Positions 21,165 through 25,098 of a stretch of DNA of 64,000 bases are shown in pieces. A model generated the notes under the pieces. The model saw nothing but the letters and a program-made list of their open reading frames with translations, did no database searches and was not told the origin of the DNA. The stretch comes from Trueperaceae bacterium. GTDB taxonomy: Bacteria > Deinococcota > Deinococci > Deinococcales > Trueperaceae. Positions within the stretch are counted from its first letter, which is position 1; every line of letters begins with the position of its first letter. A program made the position numbers and the translations under genes. The DNA lies in contig CBDCDZ010000004.1 in NCBI GenBank assembly GCA_965215565.1, forward strand, positions 3,072,001 to 3,136,000. Direction: 5' to 3'.

Positions 21165-21527
21165 GTGCAAGACCTCGACCAAATCCTCGCTTACCTCGTC
21201 AACCACGTAGACGGTGCACTCTCGGCTGCCGTCGGCGGGATGGATGGTCTCATCATCGAGCAGTACGCCGCCGATGAACGTGACCTTACCGCTGTCGCCG
21301 CCGAGCAAACGAGCCTGCTCTCGTTTAGCCAGAGCGCGTATTCAAAGGCGTTGGAGGGGGGCAGTCTCAGAGAGGTCATCGTTTCGGCGGACGAAGTCGT
21401 GGGCTACACGCGCCTCTTGGGAGATGACCTTTTCTGTTTGGTCGTGCTGAGCGCCTCGGGCAACTTAGGCAAGGCGCGGCTCTACAGCGAGCAAGTGAGC
21501 GGCGCGATTCGTGAGGTGCTCTTATGA
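21165..21527 (+). CDS. Roadblock/LC7 (MglB-like) protein 1
   Basis: VDGALSAAVGGMDGLII...GNLGKARL. Confidence 0.8.
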   Translation: MQDLDQILAYLVNHVDGALSAAVGGMDGLIIEQYAADERDLTAVAAEQTSLLSFSQSAYSKALEGGSLREVIVSADEVVGYTRLLGDDLFCLVVLSASGNLGKARLYSEQVSGAIREVLL

Positions 21528-21883
21528 CCCTGAAAGAAGCGCTCAACCCGCTTTTAATGTTAGACGGTCTCGTCACGCTGGCAGTGCTGGCGGACGACGG
21601 GCTGCCCGTCGAGGTCATCGGTTACGACAACTCGGACGCTTTTGCTGCCGAGCTTGCGACGGTGGCGAAGGTAGCGCGGCAGGGGTTTAAGTCGCTCGAG
21701 CTAGGTTCCGCCAGCCGCGTGTGTGTGTCCCTTGAAGACTTAGAAGCGTTCGTTGTGCCGCTAGAAAGCCACGTGCTTGTGGCAGTCTTTGAGCAGAAGG
21801 ACAGCGCGGCGGCGGCGCAGCTTATCGGCAAGACCAAAGCGCAGCTAGAGAGCGCTTTAGGAGCAACCTATGAACTTAGCTGA
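21524..21883 (+). CDS. Roadblock/LC7 protein 2
   Basis: LAVLADDGLPV motif; ATGA overlap with the previous gene. Confidence 0.72.
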   Translation: MTLKEALNPLLMLDGLVTLAVLADDGLPVEVIGYDNSDAFAAELATVAKVARQGFKSLELGSASRVCVSLEDLEAFVVPLESHVLVAVFEQKDSAAAAQLIGKTKAQLESALGATYELS

Positions 21884-22238
21884 GCTACTCAATGAAGCGC
21901 TCACCATCAAGGGTGTAACGAGCGCGGCCGTCGTCGCGCAGGACGGCAAACTCGTTGAGGGAGCCTCCAACAGCGGGCAAGACCTGAGCTTTGTAGGCGG
22001 GCTCATCACGAGCGGGATGGCGTCCAGCCGCGTCTTAGCCGAACTCTTGGGCGAAGGTGAAATCACCCAGACGATGATCGAATTTGACGAAGGACCAGTG
22101 CTCATTACACCTCTAGGTAATTCAGCGGGCGAAGGCTACGTTGCAGTCGTTACGATGGGCTCGGCGAGCGATATGGGGCGGGCGCGTTTTGGCTTGCGCA
22201 AGCTGTTGCCGCAGTTGGCGGAGGCAGTGGCGGCTTAG
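21870..22238 (+). CDS. Roadblock/LC7 protein 3
   Basis: GVTSAAVVAQDGKLVE...QTMIEFDEG...MGRAR. Confidence 0.8.
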   Translation: MNLAELLNEALTIKGVTSAAVVAQDGKLVEGASNSGQDLSFVGGLITSGMASSRVLAELLGEGEITQTMIEFDEGPVLITPLGNSAGEGYVAVVTMGSASDMGRARFGLRKLLPQLAEAVAA

Positions 22239-22581: not shown

Positions 22582-23958
22582 CTAATCCGCCCCCGCTGAC
22601 GCCTCCATCAAGTTGTCACTAAGAGCTTTGCCCGTCGGATTCTGATTCATGAGGAGCGCCGCGACGCCCGCCACCGCCAAACTCACCGCGTATACGCTGA
22701 GCGCGAGAGGTAATGAGAGCGTGAGCAGATAGCCGCCTAAAGGCGCGGCGAAGATACCCGCCGCTCGAGCCATCGCTCCAGCCCAACCCATACCCGTCGC
22801 CCGGACTTCGGTTGGATAGGTTTCGGGCGTATAGGCGTAGAGTGCGCCCCACGCGCCGAGCAGCGAAAAGCTCAAGAGCATACTGCCGCCCACGATGAGC
22901 ACCGAAGAGGTGGCGAGCGCGAACATCATACTGGCGGCGGCGCTGCCGAAGAGGAAGACGGCTAAAGTATTGCGCCTACCGATGCGCTCCAAGAGGTAGG
23001 CCGAAAGCGCGTAACCTGGTAGCTGCGCGAGCGCTAAGAGGACGAGATAGCCGTAACCTCTGACGAACTCAAAACCTTCTTCCACGAAGATGCGCGGCAA
23101 CCAAGTAAAAATACCGTAGTAGCCGAGCGAAAGCCCAAACCACATGATTGAAAAGAGCAGCGTGCGCCGCCGCAAGACGCCGCTAAAAAGCGCGGCTGTC
23201 GTTGAGGTGACGGTGCGCTTTTGGACGTGCAAGTCCCCTATCTCGACCTCGACGCGGTTGATATCAGCGACCTTTTGCAGGACCTCTTTCGCCTCTTCCT
23301 TGCGCCCCGTCAGCAAGAGGTAGCGCGGCGACTCGGGGACCCAGAGTCGCAAGAAGAAGCCGAGCAAGCCCGGTAACGCCGAAATCGCAAAGAGCCAACG
23401 CCACCCCGTGTCGGGCAGCGCAGGCACAATGCCCCACGCGATGAGCGCAATCAGGAGCGTGCCGAGCGCCCAGAACGCCTCCAAATACACCAAAAACCGC
23501 CCCCGCACCTTGCTCGGCAGATACTCCGCCATCACCGCGTAATCTACGGGCAGCGTGCCACCTACGGCTGCGCCTGTAAGGAAGCGGAACACGAGCAAGA
23601 ACAAGAGGTTGGGCGAGAACGCCGAGAGTAGCCCGAACACCGCGTCGAGCAAAACGGTCAGCAGAAAGATGCGTCTGCGCCCGAACCTATCTGCTAACAC
23701 ACCAAAGCCCCACGCTCCGACGAGCATCCCGCCGAAGAATGCCGAGCCGACAAAGCCCGCTTGCGTCCCTGAAATGCCTAGTCCTACAATCAGCGAAGGA
23801 ATCGCGAAGCCCAGAATCAAGACTTCCATCGCGTCCGTCGCCCAGACCAGACCGTTGATGCCTAAAAGCCGCCACTGAAAGCGCCCTAAGCCGATGCGCT
23901 CGATGGCGTCGTCTACAGTTGTAGCAGGTCTAGCGGGAGCGGGACCACGCGACTTCAT
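22582..23958 (-). CDS. MFS transporter (SV2/NiaP-like, aromatic acid/sugar porter group)
   Basis: IGLGRFQW, DAMEV, LADRFGRR, PESPRYL and PETYPTEVRATG motifs. Confidence 0.9.
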   Translation of the reverse strand: MKSRGPAPARPATTVDDAIERIGLGRFQWRLLGINGLVWATDAMEVLILGFAIPSLIVGLGISGTQAGFVGSAFFGGMLVGAWGFGVLADRFGRRRIFLLTVLLDAVFGLLSAFSPNLLFLLVFRFLTGAAVGGTLPVDYAVMAEYLPSKVRGRFLVYLEAFWALGTLLIALIAWGIVPALPDTGWRWLFAISALPGLLGFFLRLWVPESPRYLLLTGRKEEAKEVLQKVADINRVEVEIGDLHVQKRTVTSTTAALFSGVLRRRTLLFSIMWFGLSLGYYGIFTWLPRIFVEEGFEFVRGYGYLVLLALAQLPGYALSAYLLERIGRRNTLAVFLFGSAAASMMFALATSSVLIVGGSMLLSFSLLGAWGALYAYTPETYPTEVRATGMGWAGAMARAAGIFAAPLGGYLLTLSLPLALSVYAVSLAVAGVAALLMNQNPTGKALSDNLMEASAGAD

Positions 23959-24069
23959 CTGGTCAAAGCCAATCTCACGTTAGAAAACAGTACCGAGCAC
24001 TCACTTTCAGTGATGATACCTGCGTGGCTCGAGCTTACTTGAGTTAAAAAACCTTGTAGCGCTTTTGTT

Positions 24070-24196: not shown

Positions 24197-24418
24197 CGCT
24201 AAGTTTTCGTGAACATGTTGGGCTCCCATTGTTTTGACATTCCACTGCTGGTGGCCGATTGGGTAACGCCTTTGGACTTGCGTTCAAGTCCTTGCTCAGC
24301 AGAGGGCGCGGTGAAGCGCAAAATCATTATACGTTGTTTGAAGAGGTGGGGGTGTCGCTCGAGCTTAGAAGTTCATTTTCTCTAAACCTCGAGCCAAAAC
24401 CATGTCACAATACGCTCT

Positions 24419-24877
24419 ACGAAACTCGCCGAAGCTCTCATCCTCCGCGCCGACTATCAAAAACGTGCTGAGCAACTCAGGGGCAGAATTGTTAGCAATG
24501 CGAAGGTACAAGAAGGTGATACGCCCTCGGAAGACCCGAATAGGCTCTTGCAGGAGCTTGATGACCTCTCGAGCGGTCTTACTGACCTTATTCAGCGCAT
24601 CAACAAGACGAACTCTGAAACGAGCTACGAGGGGGGTAAAACGCTGACGGACGCGCTAGCTGAACGCGACGTGTTATCTCTCAAGCGTAAAATCTACAGC
24701 GAACTTGCGAAAGCGGCGTCGGTCACGCAAACACGCTACAGCAAATCAGAGGTCAAATTCAGAAGTACGGTGGAGGTCTCGAGTATCCAAAAGCAAGTGG
24801 ATGACATGTCGAAGGCGTACCGCGAGATGGACGCACAGATTCAGGCGCTCAACTGGGCGACTGACTTGTTAGAATAA
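24419..24877 (+). CDS. DIP1984-family coiled-coil protein; start codon reads ACG
   Basis: In-frame (M)KLAEALILRADYQKRAEQLRGRIVSNAKVQEGDTPSEDP...RINKTN...LAERD...RYSKSE.K...IQALNW..L, the family signature (152 aa). Confidence 0.85.
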   Translation, partial: TKLAEALILRADYQKRAEQLRGRIVSNAKVQEGDTPSEDPNRLLQELDDLSSGLTDLIQRINKTNSETSYEGGKTLTDALAERDVLSLKRKIYSELAKAASVTQTRYSKSEVKFRSTVEVSSIQKQVDDMSKAYREMDAQIQALNWATDLLE

Positions 24878-24878
24878 C

Positions 24879-25098
24879 GAAAAGCGCGTTGGTAACGAGC
24901 CAAGTTAAAGCGAGCACAGACCCGCCAACTGGGTAAGTTGGACTCCTGGGTTAGCGCAAGAGGCTGCGCTAGCAGGTTCAAATCCTGCTCCTTATAGTTT
25001 TGCCTAGCAAAGTCACAAGGGCACAGGGCAACGTAACTGTGACAACCGTGTGCTGATTAACTCGAGCTGGTGAGGGTGGGTAAGGGGATGCGTTTTTC
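24879..25098 (+). ncRNA. Candidate ~220-nt structured RNA with a tRNA-like T-arm
   Basis: 12-bp end-to-end helix, several nested helices, and GCAGG-TTCAAAT-CCTGC T-arm at 24972-24988. Confidence 0.65.

Follow-up and report, generated by a model that had tools for sequence, protein, structure and literature searches.

In type III toxin–antitoxin systems, tandem pseudoknot repeats lie upstream of the toxin gene and the toxin is a MazF-like or HEPN RNase that is toxic when its RNA is missing. Bacterial Y RNAs, including YrlA, bind Ro60 and carry pseudouridine 55. They are 80–130 nt long, and passages of one paper place a protein gene beside the RNA in an RNA-repair neighbourhood (PMC4201824). 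GOLLD and ROOL are described, in part of another, near phage tRNA islands, and OLE as having a partner protein (PMC12286853). Translation stress induces an Anabaena trn operon that contains HNH and rtcB, and the passages of that paper concerning the operon mention no RNA or protein of the kind reported here (PMC8421152).

We analysed a 64,000-nucleotide stretch of a Trueperaceae genome (the window), in which a DIP1984-family gene is followed on the same strand by a structured RNA. The identity of the gene, proposed in the original prediction, was confirmed by scores above the curated cut-offs of NF038048 (202 bits, cut-off 70) and PF20935 (196 bits, cut-off 27). The features of the locus are as follows.

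24406–24411, + strand: candidate −10 hexamer CACAAT, 7 nt before the start codon, with no Shine–Dalgarno sequence
24419–24877, + strand: DIP1984/DUF6847 gene, 152 aa, four helices, start codon ACG
24879–25098, + strand: structured RNA, about 220 nt including its closing stem P1; conserved core 24891–25087
24879–24889/25088–25098, + strand: closing stem P1, variable in sequence, assessed with a duplex test
24891–24895, + strand: GGUA(G/A) strand in the P1–P2 internal loop, GGTAG in 67 and GGTAA in 12 of 85 protein-selected RNAs
24896–24917, + strand: 5′ strands of P2a, P2b and P3, the universal core helix
24925–24941, + strand: D-like arm with a GG-containing loop, double changes in 5 of 5 pairs
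24953–24970, + strand: long arm, its loop (24961–24964) in a pseudoknot with 25002–25005 according to a complement test
24972–24988, + strand: T arm with a UUCRANY loop and covarying stem, an optional module
24992–25047, + strand: YA(C) motif track in the 3′ half of the RNA, motifs 6–8 nt apart, interrupted by the pseudoknot strand
25072–25087, + strand: G-tract GA-GGG-Y-GGG-NNN-GGGG, an optional module

Genomic coupling of the gene and the RNA

In the window the RNA begins 1 nt past the DIP1984 stop codon, and across homologs its core is 174–260 nt long (median 196). When loci were selected by the protein (the best 80 of 280 homolog loci in species-representative genomes, from Acidobacteria, Chloroflexi, Bacillota, Cyanobacteria and Armatimonadota, plus one archaeon), the 3′ motif of the RNA was found in 79 of 80, at 167–273 nt after the stop, and the remaining locus was at a contig edge. 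In the reverse test, metagenomes were scanned with a DNA pattern containing no protein information, which gave at least 120 matches. Among the 120 matches listed, found by the RNA motif alone, a DIP1984 gene lay upstream in 107, 11 were too short and 2 were without the gene, one with an intact RNA (L127) and one with a truncated RNA (L163). Thus the coupling that had been predicted between an undescribed structured RNA and the DIP1984 gene holds in both directions, and the regions downstream of homologs contain a conserved, covarying structure. No other gene family recurred in more than 8 of 85 loci.

The module is widespread and patchily distributed. The DIP1984 family comprises 1873 clusters at 50% identity (E up to 1e-10) and is found in 59 of 251 genomes of the phylum, in 7 of 69 genomes of the taxonomic family to which the window belongs and in D. 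radiodurans; 372 plasmids carry the module, 343 of them from Acinetobacter. Among nine viral homolog loci the RNA was recognized, by eye or by profile, in six, and none was detected behind the gene of the divergent viral homologs L240, L241 and L242. The RNA pattern had 0 matches in viral contigs, where divergent copies are nevertheless present. The RNA is retained with a broken or absent gene in the window, G212, G221 and L127, where the break in G212 could be a sequencing error. In a separate observation, genome G029 has a second, divergent DIP1984 copy (L085), behind which lie a shortened RNA that has lost its arms and kept its G-rich end and then a further weakly similar ORF. On an Acinetobacter plasmid, a gene annotated 'septicolysin' (L243:1498-2240) is, by eye, a DIP1984 gene with an RNA variant that has no G-tract, and the cytolysin label looks like a misannotation.

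The RNA is on the same strand as the gene and in nearly all cases separated from the stop codon by no more than about 100 nt, as would be expected if it were a cis-acting 3′ element that controls the stability or autoregulation of the DIP1984 mRNA instead of a free RNA. Against this, in L137, L236 and L237 the RNA is separated from the gene by 300–600 nt or by another ORF, it is found within tRNA arrays, and in one family of loci (f2) a −10-like hexamer follows the stop directly in 19 of 23 loci, with a terminator behind the RNA as judged by eye. We therefore regard a cis-acting element as quite unlikely.

Fold and modules of the RNA

All complementary segments named in the original prediction were found in place: the 12-bp stem 24879–24890/25087–25098 with three G–U pairs, AGTTAA/TTAACT, AGCACA/TGTGCT, CCAACT/AGTTGG, TAGCGCA/TGCGCTA, the T arm at 24972–24988, TTTGC/GCAAA, GTCACA/TGTGAC and ACCCGCC/GGTGGGT. 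By itself the window RNA folds like chance (z −1.15; 26 of 200 shuffles were as good), so the case for the RNA is made entirely from its homologs. In an 80-row alignment (A1), 91.8% of cells were paired under a 37-pair model, with double changes in 36 pairs; none of 500 shuffles reached this level and slid controls gave 32–39%. Over a set of 190 unique RNAs, equivalent to about 85 effective sequences, the maximum of a tree-based null was exceeded by 11 pairs, all of them in P2, P3, the D-like arm and the T arm and 9 in the P2–P3 core helix. Covarying elements overall were P2, P3, the D-like arm, the long arm and the T arm.

The core helix consists of P2a (24896–24900/25066–25070), P2b (24903–24908/25057–25062) and P3 (24913–24917/25050–25054), with 92–96% of cells paired, and has a conserved internal loop between P2b and P3 in which C24911 pairs with G25055 and G24912 is unpaired. 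The window RNA departs from conserved places at T24995 and at G24897, which stands opposite G25069 as a mismatch at a 98% paired position. The closing stem P1 is real despite its sequence variation: over 190 sequences the duplex of a molecule's own strands had −13.2 kcal/mol, versus −5.5 kcal/mol for cross pairs, and it was below the 5th percentile of cross pairs in 107 of 190 RNAs (29 of 85 in the protein-selected subset). No covarying partner was found for the GGUA(G/A) strand at 24891–24895.

The pseudoknot supported by sequence comparison is 24961–24964/25002–25005 and not the one first proposed. Among RNAs with a variant 3′ tetramer, 31 of 50 had the exact complement in the long-arm loop, against 0–4 of 140 for control loops, and the window itself has a compensatory AGGC/GCCU; the pairing fails a conservative global null and rests on this targeted test. 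For the ACCCGCC/GGTGGGT pseudoknot of the original prediction, we found no covariation support. At most four of its seven pairs are free because C24925–C24926 belong to the D-like arm, and these four were 92% compatible with one-sided changes only. Similarly, TTTGC/GCAAA and GTCACA/TGTGAC had no covariation support, the own-versus-cross duplex test of the GTNAC hairpin was flat, and the set of pairs found only in that prediction (including the unaligned P1) was paired as well by 454 of 500 shuffles.

Several further pairings were tried and rejected. GGU/ACC and GCCC/GGGY were 98% compatible and showed no double changes, and ACC persists where GGUAG is lost; for the C-run and the GG that precedes the long arm, own and cross strands paired equally well. 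A weak extra helix, 24996–25002/25018–25025 (115 versus 61 of 190), is unproven. The comparative fold has −42.7 kcal/mol with the pseudoknot left out, compared with −76.6 kcal/mol for the minimum free energy fold; either tertiary contacts or a protein must therefore stabilize it, or the model lacks some pairs. One variant RNA (L061) has a T-like hairpin before, instead of after, the pseudoknot arm.

The universal parts of the RNA are P2, the conserved internal loop, P3, the pseudoknot arm and the YA(C) track, which ends in NCC. Near-invariant A residues of the track are at 24994, 25009, 25015, 25023, 25042 and 25045. In 168 tracks, YA spacings of 6, 7, 8, 13, 14 and 21 nt were about 3-fold above shuffles, and 19 f2-type tracks had an exact 7-nt period (spacing 7: 65 versus 10). 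The stability of the track was no greater than that of shuffles and it is probably single-stranded; we propose the track as a candidate protein-binding site.

A tRNA-like elbow had also been predicted. The D- and T-like loops are both present in 136 of 190 RNAs, and the elbow proved to be an optional module, with a strict T-loop in 146 of 190. RNAs with GG in the loop of the D-like arm tend to have the T-loop as well (odds ratio 4.5, not corrected for kinship), and a contact between the two loops would form the elbow.

The G-tract is invariant at ten G and one A in all 80 rows of the protein-selected alignment A1; among the metagenome RNAs such invariance would be a circular result and was left uncounted. 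Its loops are 1 and 3 nt long in 84 of 85 RNAs and free in sequence, a phage locus (L235) has a hairpin inserted into the 1-nt loop, and the tract has no covarying partner. We hypothesize that it forms a G-quadruplex-like junction. A quadruplex stacks four G-tracts with potassium; three are invariant here, the fourth could only be supplied by GG 24891–24892 or a second molecule, and local prediction gave a quadruplex in only 4 of 85 RNAs. The G-tract is absent in 23 f2 loci and in the Acinetobacter plasmid copy L243, and largely absent in an Enterococcus copy (L244), where the readings of L243 and L244 were made by eye and L243 was undetected by profile. P1, GGUAG and the G-tract are missing there together, as one module, in L244 for the most part.

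The eleven invariant unpaired purines, together with the pseudoknot and the conserved internal loops, could indicate a catalytic or ligand-binding RNA, a ribozyme or sensor with the G-rich junction as its active site and the protein as chaperone. The loss of the G-tract module from whole lineages in which core and track persist argues against such an RNA, as do the lack of a consistent downstream gene and of any Rfam ribozyme or riboswitch match, and we consider it improbable.

The protein and its locus

The DIP1984 protein was predicted as an all-helical structure (pLDDT 92.8) that matches 3KDQ with a TM score of 0.93 at 46% identity. Beyond 3KDQ, which alone was above background, fold searches returned generic helical hairpins only (Z up to 8.8) and no nuclease match, a result that holds for the listed families. 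An atlas search returned only DUF6847 and unnamed clusters, and none of ten longer homologs had a second Pfam domain. A four-copy complex was predicted with a score of 0.79 versus 0.00 for the best control, with two symmetric interfaces, agreement of at least 81% of contacts between runs and pLDDT of at least 86. The score mark used is passed by 20 of 30 solved pairs, against 1 of 23 single chains; that it was passed here may reflect the predictor's memory of 3KDQ. Alignment of 127 sequences revealed conserved basic residues R10, R23, R83, R106, K113 and R135, and no conserved histidine was found in the family. The protein is net neutral, with a mean charge of −1.1.

The start codon in the window is ACG (24419–24421), on which the original prediction was silent. 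No in-frame ATG, GTG or TTG is found between the upstream stop and this codon, and 174 of 177 other loci have one of these at the start position. ACG was also read in contigs of two sequencing runs (X1 and X2) of one sample, possibly the source, and X1 contains a minor variant or relative with ATG there. Two other loci have non-standard codons at this position: L035 has ACG and an ATG 27 codons before it, and L043 has CTG and a GTG 3 codons before it. Given its ACG start, the protein is probably poorly translated and barely made in this strain, and for this reason the module may be starting to decay here. The codons differ from those of a relative (G199) by 58 synonymous and 17 non-synonymous changes; the gene was thus under purifying selection. 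The mRNA is probably leaderless, as inferred from the candidate −10 hexamer: CACAAT also precedes the ATG in G199, and a TANNNT hexamer lies 4–8 nt before the start in 23 of 23 loci of family f2. A sigma-70 scan did not flag CACAAT at 24406–24411.

The module was originally described as inserted between unrelated genes. It does lie between the genes of an MFS transporter and a 3-hydroxybutyrate dehydrogenase; the same arrangement is found in G199, and in three relatives (G001, G002 and G005) a mazE–mazF pair with a palindromic operator-like site fills the slot (L253:2337-2942, L254:2329-2897 and L256:2240-2816). G005 retains a 13-nt match to the G-tract end (E 0.098), a weak sign of a remnant. 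Three other observations were made nearby. The intergenic segment 24190–24330, upstream of the MFS transporter gene, is 72–95% conserved in G001, G002, G005 and G199; it has no Rfam match, folds modestly on both strands and may be a leader or promoter element. A short repeat at 23920–24030 is present dozens of times in G001 and G002 and seems to be an extragenic repeat specific to the genus. At 21165–22238, three short ORFs stand in tandem; the last encodes a Roadblock/LC7 domain, and the other two look similar by eye.

The mazEF pair in the same slot raises the possibility that the module is itself a toxin–antitoxin system, in which the RNA would hold a toxic DIP1984 oligomer inactive until cleavage of the YAC track by a stress or phage RNase released it. 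The RNA retained where the gene is broken or absent, the 372 plasmids, the adjoining toxin–antitoxin genes on L245 and L006, and the cutting of UACA by D. radiodurans MazF reported in part of one paper (PMC5635168) would all fit. However, the all-helical fold has neither a conserved histidine nor a nuclease match, the RNA is single and downstream, and the module is freely lost, as its presence in 59 of 251 phylum genomes indicates. Furthermore, the gene break in G212 may be no true break and the slot may merely be a hotspot for small cassettes, and we find the toxin–antitoxin explanation rather unlikely.

Function and relation to known systems

A setting in RNA repair or stress had been suggested, and it agrees with the neighbours of the module. 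Of the 80 genome loci, 20 had a gene for RtcB, Ro60, RNA ligase or KptA no more than 3 kb away; for the 80 metagenome loci, where the limit was 1.5 kb, the number was 19. These counts are lower bounds, since one or two queries were used per repair family, and they overstate independence because loci with repair genes cluster by lineage (Pyrinomonadaceae, some cyanobacteria). Three or more tRNAs were found in 17 of the 80 genome and 19 of the 80 metagenome loci, compared with 6 of 703 windows of the Trueperaceae genome studied here, and tRNAs were present in 7 of 9 viral loci. The tRNA arrays that hold the module also contain HNH, RtcB and other RNA-processing genes, and in two relatives the module adjoins dnaK–grpE–dnaJ or htpG. 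No repair gene was found within 3 kb in 60 of 80 loci, and the locus in the window has neither repair nor tRNA neighbours; in its genome an rsr–rtcB operon lies 1.7 Mb away. This separate RNA-repair operon (L246:3722-7749; G000:C4 ~1.413-1.417 Mb) comprises tRNAs, a YrlA-like RNA, rsr and rtcB. Taken together, the neighbouring genes suggest translation stress.

The explanation that we favour, and to which we give about an even chance, is that a DIP1984 oligomer and the adjacent RNA form a dispensable accessory ribonucleoprotein for translation or RNA-damage stress, with the oligomer seated on the motif track. Observed directly are the mutual genomic coupling, the covarying fold, the periodic track and the overrepresentation of RNA-repair genes and tRNA arrays nearby. 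The RNA would be transcribed together with the gene and cut to size at P1; an f2-type RNA would instead have a promoter and a terminator of its own. Each subunit might bind one YA(C) motif, so that the track is wrapped around the oligomer, with P3 and the pseudoknot closing it into a loop. The G-tract and the T/D elbow, both optional, would then point outward and serve tRNA-binding nucleases or repair enzymes as an adaptor or decoy, and the module would work like Ro60–Y RNA without being one. Against this model, the elbow and the G-tract are both dispensable, the protein is net neutral, and no RNA was detected behind L240, L241 and L242.

A more specific version would define a new class of RNA-damage-sensing ribonucleoprotein, in which the YA(C) motifs bound by the oligomer double as sites for MazF-type RNases, the RNA combines a tRNA-elbow decoy with a duplex-embedded G-quadruplex, and cleavage releases or activates the protein. 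We hold this version to be unlikely; if it is true, the module would be functionally interchangeable with the mazEF pair in the slot of its relatives.

The RNA is undescribed, having matched neither Rfam 15 nor the literature searched. No Rfam 15 family covers it in the window, none reached the gathering threshold on the RNA in 20 loci, and a literature search by concept found no description, though it may figure in such tables as an unnamed entry. In the literature searched, DIP1984 is named only in Acinetobacter surveillance, with no function or RNA partner, DUF6847, PF20935, NF038048 and 3KDQ did not occur, and papers on septicolysin, judged by title, include none on RNA. The portions seen of 2026 preprints on intergenic discovery held no matching passage, and the searched supplementary files of PMC8040213 and PMC10690425 gave 0 matches. 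If the coupling reflects a functional pair, a widespread protein family whose structure was solved in 2009, and which is often mislabelled as a cytolysin, would gain an obligatory RNA partner, and a new class of bacterial RNA would be added, in which the protein-binding track is periodic and a junction may be a natural G-quadruplex. The system is directly testable because it is small (152 aa and about 200 nt), has a crystal structure and occurs in D. radiodurans.

The protein in the window is a full member of DIP1984/DUF6847 (PF20935, NF038048, PDB 3KDQ, often labelled 'septicolysin') that has lost its start codon, and its fold shows no resemblance to cholesterol-dependent cytolysins as they are generally described. 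The RNA is not a tRNA, as originally stated: ARAGORN found no tRNA or tmRNA in the whole window, the best Rfam tRNA match was tRNA-Sec (18.8 bits versus 47, E 5), and an acceptor stem is absent; the tmRNA model RF00023 likewise did not assign it. GOLLD, ROOL, OLE and raiA are comparable as long, multi-helix, pseudoknotted RNAs without known function. Their covariance models had no match in the window up to E 10, and the present RNA differs from them in having no Rfam match in 20 loci and one soluble protein family strictly tied to it, and it is smaller than GOLLD. As in the Anabaena trn operon, the module occurs in arrays with HNH and RtcB, whereas most loci, including the window, are outside arrays. 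Type III toxin–antitoxin and AbiF–ncRNA pairs likewise combine one protein gene with one pseudoknotted RNA, and the slot is held by mazEF in relatives; in contrast to type III systems, the RNA of DIP1984 is neither repeated nor upstream, and no MazF or HEPN nuclease signature was recognized in the protein among the listed families.

There is a further likeness to Ro60 (Rsr)–Y RNA/YrlA (RF02553), which also pairs a protein gene with a structured RNA carrying D- and T-like loops in a repair neighbourhood. The RNA could accordingly be a divergent Y RNA serving Ro60, whose gene lies within 3 kb in 8 of 80 loci. Those loci, however, retain their own Y RNA: L050 has a separate YrlA just upstream of the module, and in the genome of the window a YrlA-like RNA precedes rsr (37 bits, E 1.8e-5, below gathering). 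In addition, the RNA is too long for a Y RNA, its 5′ motif is GGUAG and not GGUCCGA-like, and YrlA does not match it, which makes a divergent Y RNA highly improbable. Judged from these comparisons, the setting resembles that of Ro60–Y RNA, yet membership among the Y RNAs fails: the RNA of about 200 nt has the arm order D, long arm, T and carries a pseudoknot, a repeat track and a G-tract, and DIP1984 is a helical protein unrelated to Ro60.
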